DNA of 51,128 bases from Nemertoderma westbladi. Its lineage: Eukaryota; Animalia; Xenacoelomorpha. This document shows positions 15,805 to 47,479 of the stretch, one piece after another. Position 1 is the stretch's first letter. Every line of letters begins with the position of its first letter. Location of the stretch: NCBI GenBank assembly GCA_032718475.1, contig JAUCBJ010000104.1:1-51128 (forward strand), given 5' to 3'. A program made the translations under genes and the position numbers. The notes under the pieces are model-generated. The model had not been told where the DNA came from, did not search any database, and saw nothing but the letters and a program-made list of their open reading frames with translations.

Positions 15805-15899
15805 TCATCCAATACGTTGGACTCAGATGGGTGGGAATGAGGGCGAGACGCCCTTCCCACACAAAATATAAAATAAATAATAAAAATAATAATAAGAAG

Positions 15900-16620
15900 T
15901 GAGATAGTAGAAAGTTAGAAAGTAACAGTAGTAGAAAGTTAGATAGTAGGTAGCACTAGTTAAGAGTTAGTAAGAGTTAGTAAGAAGTTAGAAGTTAGGG
16001 AATGTGGTATATAGACATACCACGAGAGTAGTAGCATGGTACATAGTACCGGAGTAGCAGGGTACATAGTACCGTAAGAGTTAGAAGTTGAGGGCACTGA
16101 GGCTTTCCAGGCACCACGTAGTAAGAAAAAAGGGAGTATGGTATGTAGGTATACCATAGAAGTAGCAGTAGAGGGGTTGTGGGCACCGAAAGCGCCACGT
16201 AGAAAGAGAGTAGAGGGTATGGTATGTAGGTATACCATAGAAGTAGCAGTAGAGGGGTTGTGGGCACCGTAAGCGCCACGTAGAAAGAGAGTAGAGGGTA
16301 TGGTATGTAGGTATACCATAGAAGTAGCAGTAGAGGGGTTGTGGGCACCGAAAGCGCCACGTAGAAAGAGAGTAGAGGGTATGGTATGTAGGTATACCAT
16401 AGAGGTAGTAGCAGAGGGGTTGTGGGCACCAAAAGCGCCATGTAGAAAGAGAGTGAAGGGTATGGTATGTAGGTATACCATAGTAGCAGTATTAGGGTAC
16501 ATAGTACCATAGAAGTTAGAGGTTGTGGGCACCAAAAGCGCCACGTAGTAAGAAAGTAAAGGGTATGTAGGCATAGTATAGTAGTAGTAGGGTACATAGT
16601 AAGAAGGAAGAAAGGTAGAT
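15900..16620 (+). repeat. Internal tandem array of element 2 (five 81-bp units plus GAAGTTAG / GGTACATAGTACC flanking repeats)
   Basis: ATGGTATGTAGGTATACCAT recurs at 16138, 16219, 16300, 16381, 16462; each unit has inverted repeat TATGGTAT..ATACCATA. Confidence 0.92.
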
Positions 16621-16686
16621 AGGATAATAGCACAGACAGGGGGGAACATAAGAAAAATAAATTAAAACTAAAGAAAAATTGGCACT

Positions 16687-18647: not shown

Positions 18648-19292
18648 GACTCAAAGGGGAAATGTGGGCGTGCCTGGAAGGCACCACATAGGGGAGTATA
18701 TATACGAACTCCTAAGTGCAAAATATAACTAAGTGCAATTAGTATGTATGTATGTAAATAATCAATATAATCAGAATGAATATAATCAAAGTAAGTACTA
18801 TAGTCATATACAACCTTTTCCAATTAGCTACTGGGATTGGGGACCACTTGACTACAATCGGACGAGACTTAGACGGATCCCACTAACATGATGCACACAT
18901 GTGTGGGACCCAATAAGTGCATGAAGGATGAGAACCAAAATGGGTTGAGTACGAGGGAAGTATGGAGAGGAGGTGTTGGCGTGTGTGGAAGTGAGAGGAG
19001 TGCAATTCAAGTGTGGGGAGCGAGCAGTAAGAGAGAGAGTAAGGGACGAAGAGGTCCGAGAGTAAGATTAGAGAGAGGATCTAGAAAATTGTGCGAAGAG
19101 AGTCCACAATTGTCTCGAACAGAGACCCCAGATACCTTGGTGCAACATAGCTCGCGATTGCACCAAGGAGGGGTAGCAATAACATACCCAGGAGGAGCGG
19201 CCTGGAAAGCCAACCCCGAGAAAAGAACTCCACTCCACACCCGATAGTAGATTGGGTTCTATCTTCTCACCGGGAAGATAGCATGGGGGGAG

Positions 19293-19735
19293 TGCAAGCA
19301 GATTCAATTCCACTTCATTACCCACCAGAAAATGGGACTTGTGGCATTTTAGCAATATGTTGGGGATACGAGATTACCAATATTAATCTCGTATCACAAC
19401 CAACATTGGGGGGAGGGGGGGGGGGGCGACACAAGCCCCAAAGCCACAGAGAAAGGTGAGAGGTCAAAACCACCTCGGAGGGAAGGCAGCTAGTAGAGGC
19501 TAGCAGCACCGGTCATAGTTAATGACCGCCACCACCATACCGGTAATAATTAACTTGTATTTTCTGCTTATTATCTACTGGCGTGCTATTATCGTCCATA
19601 TTAATCAATATCGAGAGACAACAGAAACTCTTACTGTTTTTCCCCAACGGCCTCGGCCAAAGCTACTAGCACGATCCCCAGCAGAACGGTGATGCGTACA
19701 TTTCTAACCCGGTCGGGATCTCTGATCCCGTCACA
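19293..19735 (+). repeat. 3' LTR of element 2 (443 bp)
   Basis: Begins TG immediately after GATAGCATGGGGGGAG (same PPT context as 43641-43657) and ends GATCCCGTCACA exactly like the full element's LTR. Confidence 0.85.
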
Positions 19736-27000: not shown

Positions 27001-30000
27001 ATGAAGAACTGTGAGGCCAGTAACCAGCGGGATACTCACAGATAATCTTGGGTGTCTCTGGGGGCAATACATTAAATTAGTGACGGATTTTTGCTGGGTT
27101 ATGAAGATGAGCGATCGATAGACAAATAGATAGAGCAAGACAGTTCCATATTGATTTCGTTTTGGGTGATTTTATTGACACCTACAGTACCAAAATACCC
27201 ACACTGAAGCTAATGGTGTCAAATGATTGGTCAGGAAACTATTTAACTTTCATTGGCTCTGGAGATTTTGCTCAACCCTCCATTCTGGTACGGGATTGAC
27301 CACCATTATGTTTTCTTGCGAAGGATCTTATACCGAGTTCCGTACCATACAATTTTGCATAATGCGTATGAAGCAAACGACACGGGTATGACACTCGGAC
27401 AGAGGTACGACACCTGTAAATGGGATCGATTTATTGTATTGCCATCCATGGCATACAAGAATTACAATTTAGAATGTTCTGGAACGGGGTGTTTGACTAT
27501 CAATACAATGATAGACTATAAAGTGTCATTTTTACATAGTTACTGTGGCATCCATATTCTTAATAATATTAATCTTAACCATCTTTGCTTCTCAAGTCCT
27601 GTCCTTACTGTAGTAGGCCCCTACATTCTATTAAAAGTAATTGACTTATATGCAGTCATACAGTAGCTGATAACAACTGAATAGTGTCTCAAGAAGATTA
27701 TTGCGTAGTTTAGATTTAAATGCCAATTCCGAACGACCAACACAGTAGCCTACACTTTATTTGATCCCAATCTCAGTCAAATTCTGTATTAGGCCCATCT
27801 GTAAATAAACCAATATACCTTAACAATCCCATATTGAGAGATGGAATTTTACTCTAGAATCATATCATTTTTGCATAAGATTTTATTCCGCTACTAAATA
27901 AAGTAACATAATGAATGTAATTACTCAAAAACTCACAGTAAGCGCAACACTCAAGCCAAAACTACTAAACAATAAACATATAGCCTAATTTAACATGAAC
28001 TTGTAATATACCCAACATGAAACCAAAAACACCGATCACACAAAATTTACCGTAGACTCCAGCAAGTCGGTAGTTTTCGTCACTTCAATCACCCCAGTGT
28101 CAACTGGTAAAATATGATTTTTCTGACTAGCATCAAAATTCTATATGAAAAACAATACAATACAGTTAGGCCTACTGTACTGTACTGTAAGGGTGAAAGA
28201 AATTATGGTCGTATTTAACAAAGAGATTGCTTTTAAGACAAAAGGTCGCCTTGAAAATAAGCAATCTATTTTTGGGATAAATTCAAAGTCATTTCTACGT
28301 TATCACGTATGTTTCTTAAGTATAATTTGAAGATAAATTCCATTAAATCTACAGAACTTTCCTGCCGAATCACCTAATTTCTTGTATAATATTTGATATC
28401 GCCAATCAAACAAACAACACATGGGGGGTTAATCAACAAATTAAGTGGAAATATTTAAAATTACAACCAAAGTTACTAAGCAATAATTACAATTTAACAC
28501 ACTTCAAAAATACATACACATATTTAACCAGCACCATGATCACATAAAATTTACCGTGGCCTCTAGCACTTCGGAAGTTTTCGTCACTTCAACTACTTCA
28601 GAATCAACAGGCAAATTTTGTTTTCTTTGAATACCATCAAAATTCTGTATTAAAAATATTAAAATAAAAAAACAATGCAGATTGTTAAGACGAAAGACCC
28701 TATATTATGGAATAATTTTAACAAGTTAAATTTGTTTAATTAGTTTGTTTTGCAAATTTAATTTAAAAATAAATCAATTAAAATCGACATAAGAATATTA
28801 TTATAGAAGTTCGATCTATTCAGTGTCGGTTATTGAGTTTCCTATTTGATTGTTGTGTTGAATACAAATTCCACATTTTGTGCTCTAAAATAATTATATC
28901 AAAACAATATTAATCAATTTATAAATTTAACAATCAACAAAAAAATTATATAATATTCACCAATACAGCATAATAACATTAAAACATAAATATAATAAAT
29001 AATAACAATAAAACAAATATACCGTCTCCAAACAATAAGCTTATTTGGTGTTTTACATAAATTGGTTGCAGAAAGTAAGCCTGTTAATATAATTTAGAAA
29101 TTAAAATTAAAATTCAATTGACCTATTAATTGTATCCATAATAAAGGACCTTCTGTGTCTACTACTGCACTGGTGCAATCTATACACTGTGCTGTATTAT
29201 AATATTAATGTATGTTTGATTGAGACTAAATACTTATGGAGAGATGTCCGACAAAAAATCGACTTAGGGCCTTATGACACTTAAGCTACGATATATTACA
29301 GAATATCAATATACAGTATATACTGTAGGCCTACATTTTACCTATTCATAGGTAATCCATAATCATCCTTTATTAAGCTATTTAATTAAATAATATCAGT
29401 TGTATTTATTTATACCATAGCTGAGGGCGGGGAGGTGGCCGACATTCCTGAAATGCCTGCAAAAAATACTCAAGTCAAGGCAAAAAGTGAGATGTTGCGT
29501 TGTGGAAGCACTCACAATGCATCATAACACAGAGAGGCCATTTATCTGTGTATGTAATGTTATTAAAAAATAGTACATTGTGGGTTCTTCAAGAAATACC
29601 ATTTCCAGAAATAATCGGAAAGAGTCAGGGGGGAAGTTAACAGGTTACAGTATTATTTTTGCGTGTAATCAGCTGTTATTTGTATCTTCCACTGCAGAGG
29701 CAGGCATGCATTTTCATTGCGTCAAATAACCGCCCCAATCTGCCTAAATGACAATTTATCTAAAATTAACATCTATGTTAGCTTATTCAATCCCGCCAAC
29801 ACCCCATAAAGTTATTAGCCGATAAGCAATATTGGGAGCCACGAGATTGGGTAATTAACCAACTCGCGCCATCCCAATAAGAATGGGAAGGAAGCACACA
29901 ATAGAGGGTCAGGGGCCAAACCCCTAACCCAGAGAGAACAAGTGGAGTGAACGGGAATACTCCACGGGGCGCCAACAAGGGTATTAACCAATCAGAGGGG

Positions 30001-33000
30001 GGAATGGCATCGATTGAGTAGCAGTAAGGCCACCGTGCAATATAACCAATAACCTATTAATCAGTGATTCAGTTATCTCAGTGCAGCAGTGCTAGCGTAG
30101 GGTACAGCCAATTAGTTTAGTTAGGGGATCACGGGACTTTAGTTACCGTATCCCGCCTTGTACACATTCACAACATATCTATATCTTATAACCTCTTATT
30201 ATACACCGAACTTCAGAACTCAATTATCTTTACTTCACCCTTACACACGGCGGGGACGCGTGGACTAAATACCACACCGGATAAATCGGGATCCCTCCTG
30301 GATCCCGTCACAGTAACTAAAACCGAGCTGCCGCCCTAGTTAAACTCAAAGAACTCCACCCTAGCTAGTCGAACTCCACCGAGCAGACGAGATGAGTAAA
30401 TCGGGCGAGACACCGCGGACCCCGGACGAAGATCAAACGATCCGCGAGGCCGCGACCAAGCGATACAGGCCCACGACGCCGGAGCCATCGATAACGGGCG
30501 AACCGGAAGTCCAGGACGAGGAGGGCCTGGAACCCGAAGTCGAACCAAGAGAGAAAGAGAGCGAGATGGAGGGAGATGGAGACGAGTCGACACGAGAGGG
30601 AGAACGGCACGCCGATGTCGCCGGCCAGCTACCGGCCGAGGGCGACGAGCGGCCCACCGAAACGGCGACGGTGGGGCCGACGGTGCGACGCCGGACACGA
30701 AGAGACGGAGGAGAGATCGGTACCGATGTCGCCGGCCAGCTACAGGCCGAGGGCGACGGACGGCCCACCGGAACGGCGACGGTGGAGCCGCCGGTACGAC
30801 GTCGAACCCGGAGGGACGAAGGAGAGGTCGGCGACGAGGACGTCGGGGTTTCTGAGCGACTTCGACGGGCCTACAACGCGACCCGGAAGCTGACAAACGA
30901 CGCCAAGAAGGAAGGGGCGAAGGTAGACGAGGTGAGACTGAGAAAGCGACTAGGTGAGTCGGATAAACACTTAAATTACCTAATACGTTTTGAGCAGAGA
31001 GAACTGGCCGGGGAGAGAGCAGAAAGGATAGCCGGCGAACTGTTTGAACTATGGGAGTGTGGGAGTATGGGACCTAGCGTAGCGCCAGTGTACATAGGGC
31101 CATACTTGGTCGATGCCCGGGGAGTGAAACCAGTGGGTTGGAAGGGACCTGAAGAGGGCGAATCCGAGGTTAACACCGAGGATTCGGCCTCGTCGGTCGG
31201 AGAAAGCTCCGAAAAGGGGGAGAAAGCTAGTAGGTCGGGAAGGCGGGGGAAGTCCGTCGTAACCGATAAGTCTGCTACATCCTCCGCGAAAGAAAGAGCG
31301 GTGAGAAAAATAGGAGCCACATACCGTCTCAGCATGGCAGAGCAAGGTCAGAGAGAAATGAAGGAACGGCTAGAGGAGGGAAGAGTGCGGTTAGAGAGGG
31401 AAACGGTATTGCTTAGAGAAACCGGAGAAAGGGCCGAAAGGGCTTTGAAAAGCCTAAGGGAGTATGATGAGATAGAGGAAAGGGAGTGTAGGGAGCGTGA
31501 AGCGAGAGAGGAAAAGGAACGCGAGGAGCGTGAAGCGAGAGAGGAAAAGGAACGCGAGGAGCGTGAGGCGAGAATGGAAAAGGAACGCGAGGAGCGTGAG
31601 GCGAGAATGGAAAAGGAACGCAAGGAGCGTGAGGCGGAACGCAAGGAACGTGAGGCGGGAATGGAAAAGGAACGCAAGGAACGTGAGGCGGGAAAGGAAA
31701 AGGAACGCAAGGAGCGTGAGGCGAGGAAGGAAGAGGAACGTAAAGAGCGTGGGGCGAGACGAAGGGAGAGCATTAAGAGTGCCGCAGACTCGGCCATCAA
31801 GGACACCCAGGAGCGTGAGGGGATAGTGGCAAAGGGTGAAAGGGAGCGTAAGGAATTAAAGGAACGGCAGAGTGAGTATGCAAAAAATATAATTAGAGGG
31901 ACGCACGAGTTGGAATACGTGCAAGTGGGACCGCCGTCTGAAAGAGGGGCCGGCTCGAGTATTTTTGAGGAGCCGAGGGCCGTAGACGTATTTGTTAATA
32001 CTCCACTGACAGGGACCGCACGACAGACTCAAGACTGGTGCGACCGTACGAGCGGGGGGGGGTAATAATAATAATAATGGTACAGTAGACGTTGTCGATA
32101 TTAATAGTACCGTATGGGATAACGCTAATCAAACCTTTATTACAGGAAATACTTTGCCTGGTGGTAGTAATTTAAATTTAAATCAGAACAATCCCAGTGT
32201 TAATGTAGGAAATAATCCTAATATTAATGTAGTTACGCAAAATAATTCAAATAATCAAAATAATAACTCGAATTCGGACCTACAAAATAACTTAAATAAC
32301 GCAATTACACAGAATAATTCAAATAATGATCTTAGCCCGAATTTACAAAATAATTCAGATAACGTAGTCGCGCAGAATAATACAAATGATTTTGTTTCAA
32401 ATGAGCAAATTAATTCCGTTTCCAATATGGGTGCTATTAGTGTAGACACGTCGGGCCTACGTAACCAGGGAGCAGAGGGCCTGGTAGGCCACGTAGTTAG
32501 TAGACAGGGAGCAGAGGGCCTGGTAGGCCGCGTAGTTGGTAGGCAGGGAGTAGAGGGCCTGGAAGGCCACGCAATAGCAGAGGGAGAGGCGGGGGTGAAC
32601 AGACCCGACTGTGGTAGGGTTGATGTGTCGACTAGAGAGATATATAGTAGCGGGACGAGAGGTAGCGAAGTTAAATTTAGCGAGTGGGGGGGGGGCTACG
32701 AGCACCCCACAACAGAAAGTTAGCGGCGAGAGGGGGGGGGGGCAGAGAGTGTCCCACAGCCGTCAGCGGACAATGCGAGGGCCGAACAAGGTAAACCGCA
32801 ACAACCGGCGACGGAGAGTAATAGGGGGACTGCGAGTATCCCCGGCGACGTGCGATCGAGCAGAGAAGGACAGGTTGACGTCGCGGGAGGGCAGACGGAG
32901 CGTCGAGCCCGATTAGAGGAGGAAAGAAGAACAGTGGGGTTTAACCGGGAGGTCGACGAGAGATCTCGTGAGCGGGAATATTCCACTGATAGGAGAAGAG

Positions 33001-36000
33001 AGGAAGACAGTAGTAGAAGTATCGCCGCAAACGATAGAAGAGCGAGGACGGACAGCGAGCCGTCGGTAGTCGAGATGAGAACGGAGAGTCAGTGGGGTCG
33101 GACTCCGGGAGATTGCCGTCGCCCCGGAGGGATACGATCCGGTGAGACGCATTACACGCCGAGAGAGGGGTACGCGATGTACCGGTACGAAGATGAAAAC
33201 AGTGGAGAGGGGGGTCGAAGAGAAACTTTCCGACGGAATATACCTACCGATCGAGAATACGGTAGCCGCGGGGAGGATTATTCGAGAAGAATAAACTTCG
33301 ATCCCGAGCAACACATGCAGACTGTAGGGCATACTGTAGGTCTTACTGCACATACCGTAGGCCATACTGAGAGAGGCAATGTAGGCGATAGGATAGCGCG
33401 GACAACGGGATTAAACCCGGAAGTCGCGGAATACATACCGGCGAGTAGGCCAGAAGCTGATAGGCCTATACCGGTACCAGCACAGCAGTATGACTACAGC
33501 ATGCAGGGACATAACATATACCCAGGGGAGGGGGGAATTATTGCGGATAGGTGTATGGGCCCCAACATATTAACATCAACCCCAGTACCAGACATACCGG
33601 TGGGGGGGGGACAGGGTGACATTCCCCCATCACGATATCAACAATATACCCCGACAGGAACAAGAACAATGAGACCCCTAGATGAAAACAGGTCGTGTGA
33701 TACAGACATATGGAGGGGGCCGCTACCCCCGATGACATATCCGAGTCAGAGAAGATCAAGAAATAGGACGGACGAACCGCACCAGACAAGGGAAACTATA
33801 CAGCACCCGTCGAATCCATTAGAAGCGCAGGCAATGGGGATGGCCACGATGATCGATGCGTTGAAAACGAGGATCGAATTACCACCCGTGGAACCGTTCA
33901 AATTCGATGGGAGCAGGCCGGAAGAATACTTACAGTTTCGGCGAATGTATAGTAACGAAATACTAACAAAAAACTTGACGCAGGCGGAGTGCCTAAAGTA
34001 TCTACAAGTGTACACGGGAGGCCCAGCATACGATATCGTGAGGCAATACCAAGGAATAGAGGGCGGCTTCACGACAGCATGGCGGGCACTGGATAGGGAA
34101 TACGGGCACCCGGCCAAGATCATCAGGCAGACGCTGAGAGGCATAACATCGGGTGGCCTACAGGATAATCCCGTTAGCATTAAGACGTTTGCTAACAAAG
34201 TCGAGAAGGCGCTGATCGTGCTGAAGACGCTAGACGCGCCATACGAACTCAACGCGTCCAATAACATCACCACGATAGCGCAGGCACTACCGAGCTGGCT
34301 GCGCAACAAATGGAGGAAGATCGCTTTCTCCACCCGAGACAAGAAGGGTGCGGAACCAGGTTTAGAAGAAATGTCAAACTTCTTAAATTACGAGGCTGAA
34401 CTAATAACGGACCCAGTTTATAGTGAAGATAGCCTGGGAAATGGACCAAAGACAGATCATTACAGGCCCAAACCAGAGCACAATACATCGAACGCGTTAC
34501 CGAGACTCAGGCAATCATTGCCATATGCAGCGACGCAGGGGACTGCAAGTCCACAGACAAGCGAAGATAAGACAACATCAAGGGACGGACAGGGGAACAA
34601 TAACAACATGAATAAACATAACCCCAGTACGTCCAGTAGGTCAAACCCAGTCAATAAGAATAGTAGGGACTTTGGTACGAATATAACTGCGATACGCAAT
34701 GCATTATATAAAGAGGGCTACGACCCAAAGAGCAAATGCCAGTTACACGCAAATGCGCTTCATAAAACCATGAACTGCAGGTACTGGCAGGCGCTACCGA
34801 GGCAAGACCAGATAGATTACGCGTCGAGCAATAAAATCTGCTCGCGATGTGTGAAGAGTGGACACAAGGCCAGGGAATGCCAAGAGAAACCGGTCAAGTT
34901 TGGCCAAAGGAGAGGCCAGACGATGGCAACGAGCACAGTAGGGGCGAAGAAGAGAGGAACAGTGCTACTTGGAGTAGTACCAGTACGAGTGATCGGGGAA
35001 GGCAATCGATCAGTAACAACACTAATGCTGGTTGATAGTGGAGCTGCCTTCACATTAGTTGAGGAATGGGTAGCCGAAGAAATAGGGTTGAGAACGAGGC
35101 CAAGCAGGATGGCGGTGACAACCATCTCTAGTAAAGACGAGATCCTAGAGATGAGGACAGGACGGTGCGCAATTGCAGCAGTGGCACCAGGATGCGATTA
35201 TGGGGCAACCATCGACCCCATCCAAGTAATAGAGTCAATTAACATCAATGCCAGGCGGCCAACCAACATCGAGGTCGAGCAATACAAATTCCTGGATAAC
35301 ATTGACTTCTCAATCCCAAACGTGGACGTTAGGAAGGTATCCATCATAGTAGGCATGGACTGCCCAACGGCCCACGAGAGAATGCAAACGGTCTTCGGCG
35401 AAGACAAGCAGAGCGACCCGGTGGCCATATTAACGCCATTCGGGTGGACGCTGAGTGGTCCAATTAAGAGCAAGATACCATTCAGGATGTCGGAGACATC
35501 AGGATGCATGTTCGCGGGAACAATGCAGGAAATGGGTGACGAGGGAGCAGAGGAGCAGCTTAAAAGACTGCTCAGACAGGACTTCGAGGGACTGAAAGAG
35601 ACCGGGGTCGGGACCTCGGTAGAAGACAAGCAGGCTCTACAAAGTGTGGAGGAATCGATGACGTGTGATGAGGGGCGGTATACAATAGGAATGGTGTGGA
35701 AACTACCGAAGATACCGCTACCCGATAATAGAGGGATGGTACTCACGAGACTCCGCAAGCTGAAACAAACACTACAACGGAGTCCCGAGAAGAACGAGTA
35801 CATTCACAAAACCATTAAGAAGTACGTCGAGAAAGGATGGGCCGTGGAGTTACCGGTCGACGAACCGAACACGGACAGGACATACTACCTGCCACTCCAC
35901 GTAGCTTTAGACCCAAAGAAAGGTAAACTTAGGATGGTAGTCGATGCATCGGCAAAGACCGACGGAAAGTGCTTAAACGATTACCTACTAGAGGGCCCAA

Positions 36001-39000
36001 ACATATACAATTCGGGCATAGAAGTACTACTTAGATTTAGGAATGGGGAAACACGCCTTCACGTGTGACATAGAAGGCATGTTCAACCAAGTCCGAGTAG
36101 CAGAGGAAGATAGCGATAGTCAACGCTTCTTATGGTATAACGGCGAAGAAGAACCGCCTATAATACCGGCATATAAGATGGTAGTACAAAACATGGGGGC
36201 CAAGTCGTCCTCATTTACGACGACTATGGCAGTGAGAGACACGGTAAAGGGGAAGGAGGATAGATATAGCAGTAGGGCCGTCGACATGATCAGACGCGGT
36301 TTCTACGTAGACGACGGCATGGAGTCTGGAAATACGGTTGAGGAGATACTGGAAACAGGGCGCGAGGTTCGCGACATCCTGAGAGGATCCGGCTTCAACC
36401 TGACCAAATTCCAATCCAGTTCAGAAGAATTTATCAGGGAAATAGAGGACAAGAAACCAGAATCGACCATGGACAACCCTACAACAGCCAAAGGACAGGA
36501 CATGGCGATTAAGAGAACGGAATCCCAGCAGAAGGCGTTGGGAATCGTGTGGGATAGAAAAACAGACGAACTGAAGTATCAGCTGAGCCAGGAGGGCGCA
36601 GACACCCATACGAAGAGGGGTTACGTATCGTATATAGCAAGGATATACGATCCCCTAGGCCTAGCATCCCCATTACTAGTCACGGGGAAACAGATACTCA
36701 AGAGAGTATATAAGTTGAAGGATGAGTGGGACGTAGAGGTACCAGAAGACATTAAGAAACAGTGGAGCAAATGGACAGGAGACTTGGAGAGGATGGGAAC
36801 ATACAACATGCCGCGAGTGTATTTCCCGGACGGCAACATGACGAATCTGGACCTACATATGTTCTCCGACGCGTCGTTAGAGGCATACGGAGCGGCACTC
36901 TATTTAGTACAACGAGAGGGGCCTCACAAGCCCAGACTAGCCTTTAGCAAAGCTAAGTCAACGCCGCCAGATTCAGCATCTGTTCCCAAGTTAGAATTGA
37001 CAGCCGCGAGACTAGGAGTTAGAGCCACAGCCTACCTAGTGGATACAATTCCCAACATAGTGGAGACACACTACTGGACGGACTCCATGGTAGTGCTTGG
37101 TTGGCTACACAACGAAAAGACGAGGTACCCGATATTCGTCGCGAATAGAGTGGACGAAATAAGGGCGAGCACAGAACTAGAAAGGTGGCACTACTGCCCA
37201 ACAGACGAGAACCCAGCGGACTTGCTGTCGAGGGGCGTGGAACGCCGCACTTTCTTAAAGAAAGAAGCATTGTGGCAACACGGGCCACAATTTCTGAGCG
37301 ATAGGGAGGCCTGGCCGCCGATGAGGAAGGTGGACCCGGGCTCGGAAGTAGTATCAGAAGGAGAAGAGGGAGATTCAGAGGGAGAAGAGATATACTCCCA
37401 GATGGTGAGGGAGATCAGGGACGTGCAACCAGGAAGGGAACTGTGCGATAACCCGACGGATAAACTCCTCAGCTACAGTTCTAGTTGGTATAAGACCAAG
37501 AAACTAGTGGCGTACTGGAGAGCCTTTGGGAATTTCCTTGCGGGAGTCGGCAAGGACAAGAAGACCAGGACAACCATAGATCTGGAAGGAGCGGCCAAGG
37601 CAGTGATCCGCTATGAACAACGCAAGAACTACGGCGACGAGGTGGAACGTGTCGGTAACCAACAACATCTCCGACGGGATAGCGAGTTGATCACGCTGTC
37701 GCCACAACTCAACGAGGATGGGATCCTAGTAATGAATTCTAGGGTGGGATATAACAACAGTATAGTCGTACCACCGAAACCCATCATCATTCCCACGGGA
37801 TCGCCTATAGTCCACCAGATCATATGGGACTCCCACAAATCGATACTGCATGGGGGCACCAACCGAACCCTCACGGAGATAAGAAGGACCTATTGGGTCA
37901 AACAATTAAGGAAGAAGGTGAAAGCGGTAGTGGGACAGTGCCAGACCTGCCGACGAGCGAAGAAGGAGCGAGCCGTACAGGAGATGGCGCCACTACCGGC
38001 GAGTAGGGTAAGACAGCACGACCCGCCATTTACGCATTGCGGTGTGGACATGTTCGGGCCGATAAAGATCAAGGTGATGCGACACACGGAGAAACGCTAC
38101 GGTATTATCTTCGTATGCAACAATACGCGGGCGGTAGGGATAGAACTCGCCCAGGATGCAACCGCATCAGCCTTCATTAACGCCTTAGAAAGGTTTAGGG
38201 ACCGCAAAGGTGGGACGATCGCAGTGATATACAGCGACAACGGCACCAACTTTGTGGGCGCAGAGAGTGAGATGGCAGAGGCCTTAGACATCTTGGAGGG
38301 AGAAGAAGTCAGGGCGGCCATGAGAAGACGACAAGTGAAGTGGGAGAGACGGACGCCGTATGCACCACATACACTAGGATGCGTCGAAAGACTGGTGGGC
38401 AGTTCGAAACGTCTAATGACGAAGCTGATGAACACCCACATGGTCACTGAAGACGTCTTACGGACAGTACTTGCAAAGTGCGAGGGGATCATTAATAGCA
38501 GACCGCTATACCCGGAGAATGATGACCCTGAGTCATTAGACGTGTTGACGCCTAGCCATTTCCTGATGGAAAGGCCAGTGACCATAGATATGCGGGGTGT
38601 AGACCCAGATGATATACACTCCCGCCAAAGTTGGAAAGTAGCTAAAGCAATTAGCGCAGAGTATTGGAGGAGGTGGGTAGAAGAATACCTACCAACGCTC
38701 CATAAGCGAAGCAAGTGGAGGAAGCCAAACAGGGAGTTGAGAGAGGGAGATCTCGTAATCGTCACGGATGATACTATCATCAACAACCAATGGCGGTTGG
38801 CGAGAGTTGTAGGCACCTACTCCGACGAGGACGGAAGAGTCCGATCGGTAGAAGTGCGGATAGGTGGAAAGATAGGTGCGAAAGACAGAAAAACCTACAG
38901 GAGAGCAGTAGGTAAATGCTGTCTTCTAGAAGGGGCACCTTAAATTAGAGTTAGTGTGAAGTTTAGTCGTCCAAGTTTTGGACTGAGGGGGGTGGGATTG

Positions 39001-42000
39001 AGGGCGAGACGCCCTTCCCACACAAATAAAATAAAATAAAATAAAAATAAATAAAAGTTAGTTAGTTAGTAGGTACGTAGTACCTAGAGTTAGTTAGTTA
39101 GTAGGTACGTAGTACCTAGAGTTAGTTAGTTAGTAGGTACGTAGTACCTAGTTAAAGTTAGAGTTAGTAGGTACGTAGTACCTAGTTAGAGTTAGAGTTA
39201 GAGGGTACGTAATGCCTAGTTAGGGTTAGAGAGTAGGTAGTACCGATAGAGTTAGAGTTAGTAGGTACGTGGTACCTAGTCAGAGTTAGAGTTAGTAGGT
39301 ACGTAGTACCTAGAGTTAGTTAGTTAGTAGGTACGTAGTACCTAGTTAAAGTTAGAGTTAGTAGGTACGTAGTACCTAGTTAGAGTTAGAGTTAGAGGGT
39401 ACGTAATGCCTAGTTAGGGTTAGAGAGTAGGTAGTACCGATAGAGTTAGAGCTAGCAGGTACGTAGTACCTAGTTAGAGTTAGAGTTAGTAGGTACGTAG
39501 TACCTAGTTAGAGTTAGAGTTAGAGGGTACGTAGTACCGATAGTTAGAGAGTTAGTAGGTACGTAGTACCTAGTTAGAGTTAGAGTTAGAGGGTACGTAA
39601 TGCCTAAGAGTTAGAGTTAGAGGGTAGGTAGTACCGATAGAGTTAGAGCTAGTAGGTACGTAGTACCTAGTTAGAGTTAGAGTTAGTAGGTACGTAGTAC
39701 CTAGTTAGAGTTAGAGTTAGAGGGTACGTAGTACCGATAGTTAGAGAGTTAGTAGGTACGTAGTACCATTAGTTAGAGTTAGAGTTAGAGGGTGCGTAAT
39801 GCCTAGTTAGAGTTAGAGTTAGAGGGTAGGTAGTACCGATAGAGTTAGAGTTAGTAGGTACGTGGTACCTAGTCAGAGTTAGAGTTAGAGGGTACGTAGT
39901 ACCATTAGTTAGAGAGAGAGAGTAAGAGGTAAAAGGGGTAAAATAAGATATAGATATTAGATAGCAGTAAGTAGAGTTAGTAGTGAGAGGGGGGCATATG
40001 AGTGCAGCTGGATAAATCGTGTGGCCACACGACGCATACTGCTGTACTGCATAGGCCCACTGAGTAGGCCAGAATATGGATCAGAGAATAGAATAAATCC
40101 ATAGGCAGTAGTAAGTAGTAGGACAGTAGAATCAAAGCAAAATAAATAAGTAAATAGAATAGGGCTAAAAATCGGAAAATAGTGGTAACACAAGGAAAGT
40201 CGTTCTAGAACATAATAAAAGTAACGGACGGAAATTGTAAATTAGGCTGATTTACTAGCTCCGAAATTAATTAGATTAAATTAAGCTTGAAAGGCGCAGT
40301 TAAGTAGAAAAGTAGGCCATTATCGAACTGTAGGAAACATCTCAATACATCACTCATCTGTATTGCGCCTTGGTAAGGCACCACCCTACAGGTGAGCGAG
40401 TGTAGTGTTCGGAATGGCGAGTAAGCTGATCAGGAAGAGAAAGGCGGAGTCAGGAGGAAAAGAAATATTGGTGGATTTCACCGAAAGACACCCTGAGGAG
40501 AAGACGAGAGGATACTACGAGAGGTTGGAAAGGGGTCACGCGGCACGAGCGCTGCAGGATCACTTCCGGGAGGCGCACGAACAGCGGTTGGTCGGAACCT
40601 ACGGGACGCCGTCGCTGGATAATGCGATCTTCCAACACTTCCACTACGTGGTGAAAGGAGACGAGGCGAAGTTCGGAATTCCGAAGTATCCGAGGGAATC
40701 GCCGAGGAAGGACTGGAAAAGATTCATAGAGTCCGTCAACAGAGGAGGATATATGATCCTAGATGACGAGGGAACCGTGGAAGACGAAGCGGGTTCGAGA
40801 CGAGGAACGGCAGGGTCGGCCAGGACCATACTCTTGCATTTGGCAGCGCCAAATGGGGACATCTTCTTATTCGACTTAGGGACGTATGGGAAGAAGGACG
40901 GGCCGAAATTAGACCGACTGCCGAAAGCGGTACAGGTCTTAGTAAGAGAGAAGTCGACGACGAAAGTGGGATCGGCGATTCGCGAGGACGCGGAGAGGAT
41001 CATCGGTCCGGACGCCACCAACCTCCTGGATATGCAGAAAGTCTTTATGGCTATGACGGCACCGGATGGATTGGGGGTGGTCGAGAACTCAGGCCAATGC
41101 GGGGCGGTGGCGATGGGCCAATTATTGGGGCTCGTATGCCACAAACCAATGGATTGGGGGAAGTTTAGGGAAGAATACGGAGCAGAACTAGCGAACTCGC
41201 TGAAGTGGGGAGCGAGACCGGGAAAGCAGGAGGTATATCAGTTTCGCAGAGGAGCGATAAAGGTATATCAGAAGCGATATATCCTGCAGGAGGACTGGAT
41301 GATGATAAGTTTGCTTAACTTATTCATGACCGTAGTTATCGAAAGGGAACCAGGGGCATTTCTGTTATCGGGATCACCCCTAAGCTACAGGAGAGCCTTT
41401 AAGACGGCCTTTGACGGTCTGGTAGACCACCCGGGGCTGAAGGGCGAGTCGGTGTACTACAACAGCCGACATCTGGTAGATGGGGAGACAGATACACCGT
41501 ATCAGAGATGGGAGCAGCTAGAGATGGATAGACGGGAAGCAAAGCGATTGGAAGAAGTCGCTAGACGGGAGAGGATAGAAGCAGAGGAGAGGGAAGAGGA
41601 GGCCAGGACACAGAGTTATGGCTTCGAGGAACAGGCGGGTCTAGACGAGCTTCATTGGACTTCGTCAGGGAGTTCGGGGGAGTCTCTAGGACGAGAATTG
41701 GGATGGACGGTGGGATCGCCGAAACAGTCGACGTCGGGGTTGCAGACGATACCCATACCAGCGGGCGCCGAGGGCGACCAACCGCCAAGGAAGTTAAGGG
41801 AGCTAGAGGGATGGAGAGCTACGGGCGAGAGCCAAGGCGGGAAGGGACATAGTGGATCCATCGGGATACCGGGATTGGAGACACTGCCAGAAGAGGAGGA
41901 CGACGACGACGAGTTCGGAGAGATACCGCCCATCGAGAGGATAGGCCACTCGGACACGGACTGGGTTGGCGGGAGGGTGGTGACGGCCAGTGGGGCGAGG

Positions 42001-45000
42001 GCCTTCTGGAACAGATCCGGCAAGCGGACCTGGGTGCACGAGGGGCCGGCGATGGATTTCGCGGGGAGCACCATCAGGTTGGGCGAGCAACCGGGGACGG
42101 CACCACGGATAGTATTCGGGGAGACGATGCCCGAGAGGGGCGGAGAGATAGACGTAAACAGGGAGAGCAATGTAGAGAAGTTCGCCTACCAGCGACTCCA
42201 TAGACCGCGGAGATCGCTTGGGACGAAGGACGAGGTGGGACGCGAGACATTGGTACTCGGCTGCGACTACTGTGGGAGACAGACCCATCAGGAAAGCAGC
42301 TGCCTATACCGGTTCCAACGGGGAACCTTTTGTCTCTATTGTAGAGAACCAAGTCACAGGATGGGGGCGTGTCCACGGTTGCATAACCGATGTCCAAAGT
42401 GCCACTTTCGGGGGCACTACGGACGCGAGTGCGACTGGATGAGCGACGAGGAGAAGTTCACGAGGTTCGAGGAGTGGGCCGACGTCGGGGCCATGACGCG
42501 CCAGCGCATGAAGGCCCAAGAGTTCAAGTGGGGTTTCTTCCTCATAAACCAGGAGACCCACATGGAAATCATAAAGCGAAGGTTACCGTTTACCTATCAA
42601 GAGGTAGCTACGGCGGCATCGTTCGCCGGAGTTATGAACACGCAACGGTACCTGGACAGGTGGACACCAGAGAACCGGAGGGAGTTTAGGGATTTCTTGG
42701 CGGAACACGTACCAAAGGCAATGAAGATGATCCTATGGGACGCCACACGAGGGAAACAACCAGGCCATTCTGAGGGGCCACCGGCGAAGCGGTATCGGGC
42801 TTTAATAACACCAGCGCCCAAGGAGCCGACGACCGGGATCAGCAAGGAAGTGGCAGCGAAGGTCCGGAAGCAGAAAGCGGATGATGCCAGAGGAGCGGTG
42901 ATAACCAAGAAACGGGCCAGGGAGGAGGACGTGAGGAGGTACAGATAAGTTCCCGGAGGAGAGGGAATGGGACTGAGACTGGGACGTGGTGCGCCTGGAA
43001 GGCGCCGCATGTAACGTACGAACTATTAAGTATAAATTTAATTAATGCAAATAACTATATAAGTGCAATTCGTATGTACGTACGTAGTGATTAGCAGTAA
43101 AATACATACGTTTGGAGTAAGTACTATAGTCATACAACCTTTCTCAATTAGCTACTGGGACTGGGGGACAATGACTATGGCACTATGGACGAGACAACTG
43201 ACAATTTCACACTTCTTGAGTGCGGCGGCACGAGAGGGGGGGGGAGGTTCGTCAGGAGAGATAAAAACAGTCAAAGTGGACTTGAGAATCGGAATAAGAG
43301 TGTGAAGTGCGGAGAGAGTGCGAACGCAATTCTAGTGTGGGGGGGGGAATGAGAGGCTGAGTAAGGGACGAGGAGGTCCGGGGGTATGAGAGAGAGTTAG
43401 GGTGAGAGTAGAGGGGAGGTAGGGCGAAAGTGTTGGGGAAACAAAAATCGCGTGAAGAGGTGAGCGCGATCGGCCCGACATGAAACGCCAGGCACACAGG
43501 GTAGCGATATCATACCCATAGGGGGCGGCCTGGAAAGCCGGCTCCGAGAGAAAAGAATTCCACCCCACACCCGATGCTAGATCGGGATCCAGCGGGATTG
43601 TAGCGCACTTTTTTGGTTGATGCTATCTTCTTACCGGGAAGATAGCATGGGGGGGAGTGTTAGCTTATTCAATCCCGCCAACACCCCATAAAGTTATTAG
43701 CCGATAAGCAATATTGGGAGCCACGAGATTGGGTAATTAACCAACTCGCGCCATCCCAATAAGAATGGGAAGGAAGCACACAATAGAGGGTCAGGGGCCA
43801 AACCCCTAACCCAGAGAGAACAAGTGGAGTGAACGGGAATACTCCACGGGGCGCCAACAAGGGTATTAACCAATCAGAGGGGGGAATGGCATCGATTGAG
43901 TAGCAGTAAGGCCACCGTGCAATATAACCAATAACCTATTAATCAGTGATTCAGTTATCTCAGTGCAGCAGTGCTAGCGTAGGGTACAGCCAATTAGTTT
44001 AGTTAGGGGATCACGGGACTTTAGTTACCGTATCCCGCCTTGTACACATTCACAACATATCTATATCTTATAACCTCTTATTATACACCGAACTTCAGAA
44101 CTCAATTATCTTTACTTCACCCTTACACACGGCGGGGACGCGTGGACTAAATACCACACCGGATAAATCGGGATCCCTCCTGGATCCCGTCACAATCTAA
44201 GCAATTTCAATGGAATTGTATAGTTAACTGGACGTTCAGTTTTATAAATGAATTCAAACTGTACACTTCATTTAAACATAAATCTCAGAAAAATTTTGTT
44301 TAAAAAACTACAAATAAAAAGTACAGTAAGTTAAGTAAAACTAAAGAACATTGGAATCGGATGGATAAAGAGAAAAAAAAATAAAGACAACATAAAGATG
44401 GAACATAAAGATGGAACGTAAAGATGGAACATAAAGATGGAACATAAAGATGGAACGTAAAGATGGAACATAAAGATGGAACGTAAAGATGGAACATAAA
44501 GATGGAACGTAAAGATGGAACATAAAGATGGAACGTAAAGATGGAACGTAAAGATCGAACATAAAGATTGAACATAAAGATGGAACATAAAGATGGAACG
44601 TAAAGATGGAACATAAAGATGGAACGTAAAGATGGAACATAAAGATGGAACATAAAGATGGAACGTAAAGATGGAACATAAAGATGGAACATAAAGATGG
44701 AACGTAAAGATGGAACATAAAGATGGAACGTAAAGATGGAACATAAAGATGGAACATAAAGATGGAACATAAAGATGGAACATAAAGATTGAACATAAAG
44801 ATGGAACGTAAAGATGGAACATAAAGATGGAACGTAAAGATGGAACATAAAGATGGAACGTAAAGATTGAACATAAAGATTGAACATAAAGATAGAACAT
44901 AAAGATGGAACATAAAGATGGAACGTAAAGATGGAACATAAAGATGGAACATAAAGATGGAACGTAAAGATGGAACATAAAGATGGAACATAAAGATGGA

Positions 45001-47479
45001 ACGTAAAGATGGAACATAAAGATGGAACATAAAGATGGAACGTAAAGATGGAACATAAAGATGGAACGTAAAGATGGAACATAAAGATGGAACATAAAGA
45101 TGGAACATAAAGATGGAACATAAAGATTGAACATAAAGATGGAACGTAAAGATGGAACATAAAGATGGAACGTAAAGATGGAACATAAAGATGGAACGTA
45201 AAGATCGAACATAAAGATTGAACATAAAGATGGAACATAAAGATGGAACGTAAAGATGGAACATAAAGATGGAACGTAAAGATGGAACATAAAGATGGAA
45301 CATAAAGATGGAACGTAAAGATGGAACATAAAGATGGAACATAAAGATGGAACATAAAGATGGAACGTAAAGATGGAACATAAAGATGGAACGTAAAGAT
45401 GGAACATAAAGATGGAACATAAAGATGGAACATAAAGATGGAACATAAAGATTGAACATAAAGATGGAACGTAAAGATGGAACATAAAGATGGAACGTAA
45501 AGATGGAACATAAAGATGGAACGTAAAGATTGAACATAAAGATTGAACATAAAGATAGAACATAAAGATGGAACATAAAGATGGAACATAAAGATGGAAC
45601 ATAAAGATGGAACGTAAAGATGGAACATAAAGATGGAACATAAAGATGGAACATAAAGATGGAACATAAAGATGGAACATAAAGATGGAACGTAAAGATG
45701 GAACATAAAGATGGAACGTAAAGATTGAACATAAAGATGGAACGTAAAGATGGAACATAAAGATGGAACGTAAAGATTGAACATAAAGATTGAACATAAA
45801 GATAGAACATAAAGATGGAACATAAAGATGGAACATAAAGATGGAACATAAAGATGGAACGTAAAGATGGAACATAAAGATGGAACGTAAAGATGGAACA
45901 TAAAGATGGAACATAAAGATGGAACATAAAGATGGAACATAAAGATGGAACATAAAGATGGAACGTAAAGATGGAACATAAAGATGGAACGTAAAGATGG
46001 AATATAAAGATGGAACGTAAAGATGGAACATAAAGATGGAACATAAAGATGGAACATAAAGATTGAACATAAAGATGGAACGTAAAGATGGAACATAAAG
46101 ATGGAACGTAAAGATTGAACATAAAGATTGAACATAAAGATAGAACATAAAGATGGAACATAAAGATGGAACATAAAGATGGAACGTAAAGATGGAACAT
46201 AAAGATGGAACGTAAAGATGGAACATAAAGATGGAACATAAAGATGGAACATAAAGATGGAACATAAAGATGGAACATAAAGATGGAACATAAAGATGGA
46301 ACATAAAGATGGAACATAAAGATGGAACATAAAGATGGAACATAAAGATAGAACATAAAGATGGAACATAAAGATGGAACATAAAGATGGAACATAAAGA
46401 TGGAACATAAAGATGGAACATAAAGATGGAACATAAAGATGGAACATAAAGATGGAACATAAAGATGGAACATTGTTGTAGAATCATATCATTTTTGCAC
46501 TTATATAAATAAAGCCAAAACTACTTAAGAGTAAATATAATTAACATGAAATTAAAATACACCAACATATAACAAAAACAACGATCACACAAAATTTACC
46601 GTAGCCTCGAAAAAGTCGGTTGTTTTCGTCACCTCAAGCACCTCAGATTCAACTGGCAAAATTTGTTTTTTCTGTTTACTATCCAAATTCTAATAAAAAC
46701 AATACTAATATACTGTGTTGGGCCTACCGGGCCTACCGGGTCTTACTGTATTTAATACAAAAATAAATACATTGTTGAAGTCAATGCTGAATGCTGATGA
46801 CAAAAAGCAATCCATTAGGCCTATTCGACTAAATTCGTTTTCATTTCTACGTTATCACATAATACACGTTTCTTAAATTTATCAATTAAATTTATCATCT
46901 ATCAAAATATAATAATATTAAAATTATAATAAAACAGTAGGTCTAATTTCACGACAATAAATCAAACATATAATATGAAAATCAATACATATATATACAA
47001 AAATAAACATGTAATATATTTATATGAAAATAACAATCCAATAAATATAAAATTTAAAAATATAATAACAATAATTAAACACTTACTGTATACCGCCGAC
47101 CACAACCAAAAAATTAGCATAATATTAATTCCATAATAAATAGAAATCGAAATAAATTCAATAATAATAATAATTAATTATATATAATATAAAATACTAA
47201 ACTTTGCATTTGAACCCATCGAACACATTTATTTTAATAAAATTATATTTTGCATTTATCAACAAAAATTGTGGAAATTTTTAATAATAAAGACAACATA
47301 TAACTACGCAATGAATATAATTTAAAAAAACATAAAATACACGAAAACATGTAACCAACACCGTAATGGCGTAATCACAACAACTTTACCGTGTCCTCGA
47401 GATACTCTGTAGTTTTCACAACTTCAATCACATCAGAGTCAACAGGCCAAAATTGTTTTTTACGACTACCATGAAAATT
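21092..47479 (-). CDS. SAXO: Stabilizer of axonemal microtubules (SAXO1/SAXO2, FAM154-like), 3' exons; 5' end not found in window
   Basis: GT-AG exons with consistent phases: 47479-47390, 46689-46600, 28644-28555, 28140-28051, 24100-24011, 23426-23334, 23006-22880, 22696-22567, 22393-22185, 21222-21092. Spliced product has Mn-like repeats (HDFRTTHHTAF, PFEGRTNYTQDFVRWP, PFGGMATYRAHY, QFEGNTLYRIDF) and C-terminal CPVVELPKHGYTFAEVNPRGHRVY, resembling the SAXO1/2 C-terminus. Last four exons are more secure than the linkage to the repeat exons. Confidence 0.82.
24296..25798 (+). mobile_element. Non-autonomous PIF/Harbinger derivative with transposase N-terminal remnant
   Basis: TIR GGCCCGGGT(T/A)ACACAT, TAA TSD both sides; ~24625-24860 translates RRYWVHPINHERLLYG..LYQDL...FFIYY..RMSIPSFDELL...DSKWRKSIP, typical of Harbinger transposase N-termini; subterminal TTCAAC repeats. 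Confidence 0.85.
24900..25545. mobile_element. MITE family C, copy 2, nested in the Harbinger element
   Basis: Same termini as 9567-10109; 9-bp TSD GTATATAAC (24891-24899, 25546-25554). Confidence 0.9.
29776..30312 (+). repeat. 5' LTR
   Basis: TGTTAGCTTATTC...GGATCCCGTCACA; no difference seen by eye from 43658-44194. Confidence 0.97.
30392..36068 (+). CDS. gag-pol: Gag-protease-RT(N) polyprotein, split by frameshifts at three G homopolymers
   Basis: ORFs 30392-32065, 32154-32723 and 32850-36068 join across G runs near 32055, 32690, 32735. E/R/K coiled-coil repeats, Asn-rich tract, BEL gag core (LPPVEPFKFDG..EYLQF), CQLH..H..C and CSRC..GH...C knuckles, LVDSGA protease, YYLPLH..KLRMVVDAS..CLNDYLLEGP RT start. 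Confidence 0.9.
36043..38943 (+). CDS. pol: Pol: RT core, RNase H, integrase
   Basis: CDIEGMFNQV, FYVDD, LHMFSDASLEAYGA, PKLEL, WTDS, NPADLLSRG, H...HGG..CQTC, GVDMFGP, SDNGTNF, VERL, RWVEEYLPTL. One extra base near 36040 separates it from the upstream frame. Confidence 0.96.
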   Translation: MGKHAFTCDIEGMFNQVRVAEEDSDSQRFLWYNGEEEPPIIPAYKMVVQNMGAKSSSFTTTMAVRDTVKGKEDRYSSRAVDMIRRGFYVDDGMESGNTVEEILETGREVRDILRGSGFNLTKFQSSSEEFIREIEDKKPESTMDNPTTAKGQDMAIKRTESQQKALGIVWDRKTDELKYQLSQEGADTHTKRGYVSYIARIYDPLGLASPLLVTGKQILKRVYKLKDEWDVEVPEDIKKQWSKWTGDLERMGTYNMPRVYFPDGNMTNLDLHMFSDASLEAYGAALYLVQREGPHKPRLAFSKAKSTPPDSASVPKLELTAARLGVRATAYLVDTIPNIVETHYWTDSMVVLGWLHNEKTRYPIFVANRVDEIRASTELERWHYCPTDENPADLLSRGVERRTFLKKEALWQHGPQFLSDREAWPPMRKVDPGSEVVSEGEEGDSEGEEIYSQMVREIRDVQPGRELCDNPTDKLLSYSSSWYKTKKLVAYWRAFGNFLAGVGKDKKTRTTIDLEGAAKAVIRYEQRKNYGDEVERVGNQQHLRRDSELITLSPQLNEDGILVMNSRVGYNNSIVVPPKPIIIPTGSPIVHQIIWDSHKSILHGGTNRTLTEIRRTYWVKQLRKKVKAVVGQCQTCRRAKKERAVQEMAPLPASRVRQHDPPFTHCGVDMFGPIKIKVMRHTEKRYGIIFVCNNTRAVGIELAQDATASAFINALERFRDRKGGTIAVIYSDNGTNFVGAESEMAEALDILEGEEVRAAMRRRQVKWERRTPYAPHTLGCVERLVGSSKRLMTKLMNTHMVTEDVLRTVLAKCEGIINSRPLYPENDDPESLDVLTPSHFLMERPVTIDMRGVDPDDIHSRQSWKVAKAISAEYWRRWVEEYLPTLHKRSKWRKPNRELREGDLVIVTDDTIINNQWRLARVVGTYSDEDGRVRSVEVRIGGKIGAKDRKTYRRAVGKCCLLEGAP
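39055..39910 (+). repeat. Internal tandem hairpin array of element 1 (~26 irregular units)
   Basis: (GAGTTA)n-GTAGGTACGTAGTACCTA units; TAGGTAC-GTA-GTACCTA is an inverted repeat. Confidence 0.93.
40414..42948 (+). CDS. ORF3: DEDDy/DnaQ-like 3'-5' exonuclease domain (RNase D/WRN/Mut-7/EXD type) + three CCHC knuckles, 844 aa from first ATG
   Basis: YMILDDEG (ExoI D-x-E), LLHLAAPNGDIFLFDL, LPKAVQVLVREKSTTKVGSAIRED (ExoII), LLDMQ, YQKRYILQED (ExoIII-like); CDYCGRQTHQESSC, CLYCREPSHRMGAC, CPKCHFRGHYGREC; basic termini; uninterrupted frame. Confidence 0.85.
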   Translation: MASKLIRKRKAESGGKEILVDFTERHPEEKTRGYYERLERGHAARALQDHFREAHEQRLVGTYGTPSLDNAIFQHFHYVVKGDEAKFGIPKYPRESPRKDWKRFIESVNRGGYMILDDEGTVEDEAGSRRGTAGSARTILLHLAAPNGDIFLFDLGTYGKKDGPKLDRLPKAVQVLVREKSTTKVGSAIREDAERIIGPDATNLLDMQKVFMAMTAPDGLGVVENSGQCGAVAMGQLLGLVCHKPMDWGKFREEYGAELANSLKWGARPGKQEVYQFRRGAIKVYQKRYILQEDWMMISLLNLFMTVVIEREPGAFLLSGSPLSYRRAFKTAFDGLVDHPGLKGESVYYNSRHLVDGETDTPYQRWEQLEMDRREAKRLEEVARRERIEAEEREEEARTQSYGFEEQAGLDELHWTSSGSSGESLGRELGWTVGSPKQSTSGLQTIPIPAGAEGDQPPRKLRELEGWRATGESQGGKGHSGSIGIPGLETLPEEEDDDDEFGEIPPIERIGHSDTDWVGGRVVTASGARAFWNRSGKRTWVHEGPAMDFAGSTIRLGEQPGTAPRIVFGETMPERGGEIDVNRESNVEKFAYQRLHRPRRSLGTKDEVGRETLVLGCDYCGRQTHQESSCLYRFQRGTFCLYCREPSHRMGACPRLHNRCPKCHFRGHYGRECDWMSDEEKFTRFEEWADVGAMTRQRMKAQEFKWGFFLINQETHMEIIKRRLPFTYQEVATAASFAGVMNTQRYLDRWTPENRREFRDFLAEHVPKAMKMILWDATRGKQPGHSEGPPAKRYRALITPAPKEPTTGISKEVAAKVRKQKADDARGAVITKKRAREEDVRRYR
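43620..43657 (+). promoter_or_regulatory. Hairpin + polypurine tract before 3' LTR
   Basis: ATGCTATCTTC-TTACCGG-GAAGATAGCAT stem-loop then GGGGGGGAG abutting LTR TG; conserved at 19259-19292. Confidence 0.85.
43658..44194 (+). repeat. 3' LTR
   Basis: Direct repeat of 29776-30312 at constant offset 13,882. Confidence 0.97.
44389..46473. repeat. 13-bp minisatellite (AACATAAAGATGG)n, ~160 copies
   Basis: Continuous 13-mer with variants AACGT-, -GATTG, -GATAG, -GATCG recurring in higher-order blocks. Confidence 0.98.

Follow-up and report, generated by a model that had tools for sequence, protein, structure and literature searches.

What does a gene with an exonuclease fold do behind pol, in the place where a BEL/Pao retrotransposon would be expected to carry at most an envelope gene? 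The question is raised by a 14.4-kb element in a 51,128-nt stretch of the Nemertoderma westbladi genome (contig JAUCBJ010000104.1, assembly GCA_032718475.1; hereafter the window, to whose positions all coordinates refer, on the forward strand unless stated). Behind pol the element carries a third open reading frame, ORF3, which is intact over 844 amino acids (40414-42948; ATG at 40414, stop at 42948) and joins a predicted exonuclease domain to three CCHC knuckles. Its position and intactness, the selection acting on it, its recurrence behind pol and the disappearance of catalytic acids throughout one branch of the family are observations. Building on these, we put at about an even chance the reading that ORF3 is a selectively maintained accessory gene behind pol in many BEL/Pao elements, likely an RNA-binding factor that works on the transcript of its own element and neither an envelope protein nor a proofreading enzyme.

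The element is bounded by mutually identical long terminal repeats (LTRs) of 537 nt with TG...CA ends, found by self-comparison of the window (29776-30312 and 43658-44194), and both outer flanks carry a 5-nt target-site duplication. Because the LTRs are identical and the target site is duplicated, the insertion is recent. Gag-pol (30365-38943; open reading frames, Pfam and self-comparison) comes in four pieces, 30365-32065, 32010-32723, 32724-36068 and 36022-38943. Pfam domains above cut-off (DUF1759, Asp_protease_2, Peptidase_A17, Integrase_H2C2 and DUF5641) follow one another in BEL/Pao order, and matches to RVT_1 and rve score below their cut-offs. LTR length and termini, target duplication, the order Gag, protease, reverse transcriptase, RNase H, integrase and a polypurine tract all agree with BEL/Pao. 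Window pol matched 706 BEL-domain polyproteins at E<=1e-60, the best 120 of them at 28-36% identity. The sequence-only reading of this DNA had called the element BEL/Pao, and the BEL-type Pfam domains and the grouping of pol bear this out; on its pol sequence the element is BEL/Pao, in trees built without a gypsy or copia outgroup. In a DNA run from the same organism (X1), summed contig depths were ~7,000-155,000 over the whole element versus 16-27 on flank contigs, a measure that is no copy number and that points to a large element family.

ORF3 runs uninterrupted through three Exo motifs (LDDEG at aa 116, KVGSAIRED at aa 184, YILQED at aa 289) and three CCHC knuckles (aa 617, 640 and 660), all where the sequence-only reading had placed them. 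Its assignment of the ExoIII acid needed correction: the motif lies at aa 289, but in family alignments the acid four residues after the tyrosine is E293 and not D294, and the window copy reads D117-E119-D192-E293. Across 96 domains the last acid of the ExoIII Y-x3-D pattern is D in 48 and E in 26-27. Profile and model delimit a DEDDy/RNase D-type exonuclease domain at aa ~60-340 (40591-41433; D117, E119, D192, Y289, E293). It is followed by a long charged helix (aa 362-401) and a linker predicted to be disordered (aa 403-611; together 41497-42246, from the model), and then by the knuckles (aa 617-673) with a conserved helical tail to aa ~780 (42262-42753; motif, alignment and model). No transmembrane segment or signal peptide was seen by hydropathy, used here without a dedicated predictor: the highest 19-aa window reaches 1.3 and the N-terminus is basic. 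The rejection of an envelope identity, already made from the sequence, is supported by this hydropathy profile and by the predicted exonuclease fold.

This gene escapes Pfam. ORF3 has no match there, whether to PF01612 (DNA_pol_A_exo1) or to the partner domains of Nibbler/Mut-7, EXD2 and Egalitarian (Egl); against the PF01612 gathering cut-off of 23.6, one homolog (L070) passes at 26.1 and three (P0021, P0060, L076) fall just under. Word-index protein searches returned no relatives and a single-sequence PDB search was blank. Only a full HMMER search recovered them, as 75 proteins matched mostly via the knuckles; 34 of the 40 matches that are 440-1100 aa long also align to ORF3 aa 85-312, and none of the 20 homologs looked up bears an informative name. 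A profile of 31 homologs matched EXD2 (E 2.5e-9), Egl (5e-5), WRN-exo (2e-3) and Lin28 knuckles.

Structure prediction agreed with these matches. Folding from the single sequence gave a predicted local distance difference test (pLDDT) score of 32 only, and an AlphaFold model on the homolog alignment was confident at aa 60-340 and 612-780 and disordered at 403-611 (mean pLDDT 66, predicted template modelling score 0.46). Two folded domains joined by a disordered linker are thus the predicted architecture. The model aligned best with the Nibbler EXO domain (Z 14.4, second comparison 14.3; root-mean-square deviation 3.0 over 201 residues), followed by WRN, RNase D, Rrp6, Egl and Exd1 (Z 12-13; Exd1 12.0). 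Foldseek placed Egl and trypanosome RNase D at the top, and Atlas features of ORF3 led to PF01612 clusters at 0.94; an Atlas search with the knuckle module gave leads all under 0.9. The DnaQ-like DEDDy/RNase D-type fold foreseen from the motifs is therefore settled at the level of profiles and models. The subfamily is not singled out, because no more than ~2.5 separates the Z values obtained for Nibbler, WRN, RNase D, Rrp6 and Egl.

Selection on ORF3 could be estimated against a decayed sister element elsewhere in the window (13846-19735; self-comparison), which retains a gag-protease piece, a hairpin array, an ORF3 remnant and a probable 3' LTR. The remnant (16687-18602), interrupted by four stops and one frame break, is 76% identical to aa 227-841. 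The ratio of nonsynonymous to synonymous substitution rates (dN/dS) had been set beforehand as a check, with a value near 1 counting against a functional gene; it came out at 0.092 (bootstrap 0.055-0.128; 593 codons), in a comparison that leaves out ExoI and ExoII, both missing from the sister. By part, it was 0.19 in the linker and 0.08 in the exonuclease portion, and synonymous sites in the knuckle region were saturated. Among 40 of 1513 variant rows, 17 of 23 ORF3 variants between copies fell at third positions. By these substitution patterns ORF3 is under purifying selection. The sister's ORF3 has D at the ExoIII acid position, and its probable 3' LTR starts at 19293, the LTR ends being placed from the polypurine tract and terminal similarity.

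The sequence-only reading described this architecture in one element. The architecture is real and reaches further: the gene is widespread, and three more homologs in the window had gone unmentioned. Searching metagenomes with a degenerate DNA pattern of the knuckles' core recovered at least 120 loci, 80 of them with flanks, which were scored for context, and 40 without; the same pattern gave no match in viral contigs and five in prokaryote genomes. One locus (L040) was rejected as a chance match lying in the frame of an MFS transporter. Among the flanked loci listed, 59 of 80 contain the exonuclease domain. The end of a BEL pol lies directly upstream on the same strand in 44 of these 59 (40 by tblastn, four more by profile). 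In all 40 tblastn loci pol ends before the exonuclease domain, and ORF3 is therefore a separate gene; exonuclease and knuckles share one open frame in 33 of them. The remaining 15 loci show no pol upstream, eight having <1.1 kb before the domain and seven 1.3-9 kb (L004, L007, L010, L027, L045, L061, L079). No non-BEL reverse transcriptase was present in the 40 locus ORFs chosen for scanning. Three loci on one pol-tree branch (L042, L050, L067) carry ORFs of ~920-1060 aa behind pol with the knuckle motif and no detectable exonuclease. As a separate observation, four ORF3 variants (L037, L044, L004 and P0072) have N-terminal extensions of ~400-950 aa before the exonuclease, with no Pfam match.

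ORF3 has travelled with its element. Integrase and exonuclease distances were correlated across 33 elements (32 loci and the window, in 18 groups at 70% integrase identity; Mantel rho 0.71, reached in 0 of 2000 permutations). The exonuclease tree reproduces 12 of 15 supported integrase splits, the reverse comparison gives 6 of 11, and one supported conflict was found. On a pol tree rooted with two pseudoscorpion polyproteins, window pol, on a long branch, groups as sister (97/93) with polyproteins of cnidarians, echinoderms, one mollusc, one nemertean and one fish; these polyproteins contain neither an exonuclease nor a knuckle domain, in a comparison that covered the polyproteins themselves. 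A single clade of ORF3 carriers was rejected on this tree (approximately unbiased test, p-AU 0.018; one model, 33 of 58 rows used). Both loss of ORF3 and its exchange fit the pol tree.

Two of the homologs in the window are distant and broken and stand apart from the sister. One (10226-12607) has exonuclease and knuckles with one internal stop; its pairwise BLAST comparison with ORF3 was not significant, and it was recognized by profiles built without it (exonuclease E 1.5e-10, knuckle E 3.1e-7). The other (6102-6788) is an exonuclease homolog retaining the portion with ExoII and ExoIII (profile E 2.4e-17). A 91-nt tandem repeat (8149-8506) lies between them.

The active site varies. In the 40 BEL-linked loci, 20 domains keep the four acids, 18 lack at least one and 2 are incomplete. 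The 15 degenerate loci present in the trees form one clade, with support of 0.994 in the exonuclease tree and 0.31 in the integrase tree. Pairs within this clade gave dN/dS of 0.10, 0.19, 0.20, 0.24 and 0.51, with one further pair saturated, similar to the 0.08-0.50 of three pairs with intact sites. By sequence, catalysis appears to be optional in the family, and a fold kept under selection without its catalytic acids points to binding. There is precedent in Egl, whose non-catalytic exonuclease fold (ExoHD) binds stem-loop RNA with the catalytic residues dispensable, as described in passages of PMC13186709.

On the RNA-binding reading, ORF3 would be translated on its own, from a subgenomic message. 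Its knuckles would grip single-stranded RNA while the exonuclease fold would hold 3' ends or stems, and the protein could thereby shield genomic RNA or direct it to particles or to germ cells. Where all four acids are present, as in the window copy with D-E-D-E, trimming of RNA 3' ends may come on top as an optional activity.

Several points weigh against this reading. The RNA-binding role is a prediction from the fold and the loss of acids. In half of the family the active site has stayed complete across deep divergence, and for those branches catalysis matters. The homologs were gathered via the knuckle motif, which makes knuckle conservation partly circular. Neither the homolog at 10226-12607 nor that at 6102-6788 has a pol beside it that we could find, and the latter has no knuckles either; these pol-less copies show that the gene also occurs outside the setting behind pol. 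Splice acceptors before ORF3 are not enriched among relatives (4 of 38 at p<=0.05), which leaves the mode of expression putative. Gag-pol is split into four pieces, and the window copy is therefore probably not autonomous. Finally, counter-silencing would fit as well, since the closest folds, Nibbler and Exd1, have roles in piRNA pathways.

Counter-silencing is the rival that survives best, and we regard it as possible though doubtful. ORF3 would trim, degrade or sequester piRNA or siRNA precursors, or inactive forms would serve as decoys for the partners of Nibbler, Mut-7 or Exd1, and the family would be desilenced in trans. The best structural matches, Nibbler and Exd1, and the trimming of piRNA 3' ends by Nibbler described in passages of PMC13269885 lend this idea substance. 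Decoys need no catalysis, so the degenerate forms fit, and the very high read depth of the family in its host would agree with this reading. However, the narrow spread of Z values does not single out the piRNA branch, and the consulted sections of PMC5408684 report no clear link between the DEDDy ORF3 of rotifer elements and copy number. A suppressor acting in trans could also be exploited by copies without it, yet ORF3 tracks its own integrase.

A catalytic role in replication, in which ORF3 would proofread or trim the ends of the cDNA or the primer of the minus strand, seems unlikely to us. This idea draws on the four acids and tyrosine, kept in the window copy as they are in 20 of the 38 relatives that could be scored, on a fold shared with the WRN, EXD2 and Pol I exonucleases, and on an unusual primer site. 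The primer-binding site place behind the 5' LTR (30313-30340) holds no TGG tRNA-type site, a departure of this copy from the description of BEL/Pao by the ICTV, the international virus taxonomy committee. Its first 9 nt (30313-30321) are the exact reverse complement of LTR positions 30138-30146, a length reached in 0.4% of LTR shuffles. This complement has what we take to be the geometry of Tf1-like self-priming and would suit an element that primes itself. The match was noticed after the fact and in the window copy alone. TGG tRNA-type sites of the usual kind occur in relatives: L018 and L072 have one immediately after the LTR, and about ten others have one close to where the contig begins. 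Self-priming was therefore abandoned as an explanation of ORF3. A whole branch without the acids is under purifying selection, and cDNA proofreading, which had been put forward from the sequence, is weakened as a general function by the 18 of 38 scorable domains that lack an acid at dN/dS 0.10-0.51.

The sequence-only reading had also paired the exonuclease with the hairpins upstream of it. Tandem hairpins do lie between the pol stop and the polypurine tract: the array (39064-39914; Tandem Repeats Finder (TRF) and folding) consists of ~26 repeats, 32-34 nt long, in each of which a short palindromic stem sits in C-poor spacers, and is preceded by (AAATA)n at 39024-39056. TRF reported a period of ~34 with 25.9 copies, a higher-order period of 194 and a score of 979, and 24 palindromic cores were matched, each folding to a 4-7 bp stem. 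The whole array folds far better than shuffles (z -7.5 on the forward and -6.6 on the reverse strand, 20 shuffles), in part through pairing among the repeated palindromes, and these values are inflated as shuffling destroys the tandem repeat; a single unit is unremarkable (z -1.5).

That the exonuclease and the array form a dedicated enzyme-substrate pair we consider improbable. The sister has its own array in the same place (~15930-16620), which repeats every 81 nt and contains a 9-bp hairpin as well as another repeated motif with GAAA and GTAA alternating at its centre; it shares a 13-nt core with the window array despite the different period, in 3 copies versus 16 exact ones. Among the elements compared, the sister alone shares both the position and the core. 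None of 40 relatives has a comparable tandem array between pol and exonuclease, the best TRF scores being 173 and 120 (two-copy repeats) versus 979; short-read contigs may under-sample arrays, but in all 40 the sequence runs unbroken from pol into ORF3. The 13-nt core is absent from all 120 listed metagenome loci, the single units are weak hairpins, and Rfam gave nothing above noise for the element. The array is thus a family-specific expansion of the non-coding spacer that the gene family does not require, and it could be a binding platform in the window element.

That ORF3 is a captured host gene without a role for the element is very improbable, for although the two pol-less homologs in the window and the rejected single clade of carriers would suit such a passenger, this idea is largely refuted by selection and co-inheritance, with dN/dS near 0.1, a position fixed behind pol in 44 loci, distances that track integrase, and exonuclease domains that stay open at only ~20% mutual identity.

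DEDDy ORF3s in LTR retrotransposons are already known, a precedent that the sequence-only reading had named correctly. The Juno and Vesta elements of bdelloid rotifers carry a separate RNase D-like DEDDy ORF downstream of pol, without a transmembrane segment, with a DEED motif and a function not shown, as described in parts of PMC5408684; the case is also cited in a passage of PMC6338049, and Athena/Terminon elements also have a DEDDy ORF according to sections of PMC6431247. In the same parts of PMC5408684 Juno and Vesta appear as rotifer-specific lineages with a dUTPase, recent family-specific gains and no triple-CCHC module described. The window element has no Pfam match to dUTPase. Compared by description and not by sequence, the present family differs in its BEL/Pao setting, deep branches, selection and degenerate clade. 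What appears to be new is the superfamily, the knuckle fusion, the depth and the pseudo-enzyme branch.

Belpaoviridae are described with gag, pol and env-like genes only (PMC8742986), and passages of PMC8742986 and PMC3118150 describe BEL/Pao elements as 4.2-10 kb long and as carrying gag and pol and, at the most, an env gene. The window element shares their LTRs, polypurine tract, gene order and BEL-type Pfam domains and differs in its 14.4 kb, its non-env third gene and its lack of a tRNA-type primer site. Undescribed environmental BEL clades in plankton are mentioned in part of PMC5029228. A term search of the accessible text of PMC3118150, PMC12440569, PMC2774666 and PMC7998251 did not find the word exonuclease. 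We found no literature report of an exonuclease ORF or knuckle fusion in BEL/Pao, in a search that imperfectly matched the spelling 'BEL/Pao' and lay outside Repbase, Dfam, GyDB, subscription papers and supplements, which may hold one.

Cellular and other transposon-borne relatives are likewise similar in part. Nibbler/Mut-7, EXD2, WRN-exo and Exd1 share the fold (Z 12-14.4) and the order of ExoI-III, whereas ORF3 is 8-19% identical to them, shows none of their partner domains, has C-terminal knuckles and is transposon-borne. Egl shares the exonuclease fold; in contrast, no LOTUS-like domains were detected in ORF3, and the array stems of 4-7 bp are shorter than the two helices of >=6 bp in the Egl signals, as far as these are described in parts of PMC13186709. 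Trypanosoma brucei RNase D (PDB 7c42/7c45, 'CCHC-type domain-containing protein') unites a DEDD exonuclease and a CCHC finger in one chain as ORF3 does and was matched by both the profile and the fold comparisons, but is a cellular protist enzyme, and the three knuckles of ORF3 stand ~270 disordered residues from its exonuclease. Dada DNA transposons also carry a DEDDy domain, but inside the DDE transposase and not as a separate retroelement ORF (passages of PMC3706591).

A conserved, Pfam-invisible third gene other than env in dozens of divergent elements changes the picture of BEL/Pao as gag, pol and at most env. The rotifer work left the functionality of retroelement DEDDy ORFs open; the ORF3 family adds selection, long co-inheritance and an active/inactive pair, which makes the matter directly testable. 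Should ORF3 act on small RNAs or on the transport of RNA, animals would offer a clear case of a counter-measure encoded by a transposon. More widely, and tentatively, deep branches of BEL/Pao may carry and exchange active and pseudo-enzyme forms of an exonuclease-knuckle protein that counters or reroutes germline RNA control, by piRNA trimming or by Egl-like transport; such a class would be to animal transposons what silencing suppressors and Rev-like factors are to viruses.

Other signals surround these genes. A 13-bp hairpin lies directly before the polypurine tract (43620-43657, tract at 43649-43657; fold z -3.1), and a similar one is found in the decayed sister (z -0.7). The U5 end of the LTR forms a strong hairpin (30280-30312, z -3.1), and 6 nt at the 9-nt primer-site complement are also splice-donor-like. 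A possible branch point and 3' splice site lie in 40340-40413, ~23 nt before the ORF3 ATG, and would place the array in an intron. The N-terminal part of gag (30365-32723) is very long and of low complexity and includes charged repeats of 33 nt as well as a stretch rich in Asn. Just beyond the 3' LTR is a 13-nt satellite of ~160 copies (44389-46473). The window also holds two MITE-like families whose inverted repeats consist of short tandem units (9564-10103 with 24892-25552, and 859-926 with 4439-5542) and, at 3-575 on the reverse strand, a host gene fragment encoding the TFIIH subunit Tfb4 (Pfam E 6e-29).

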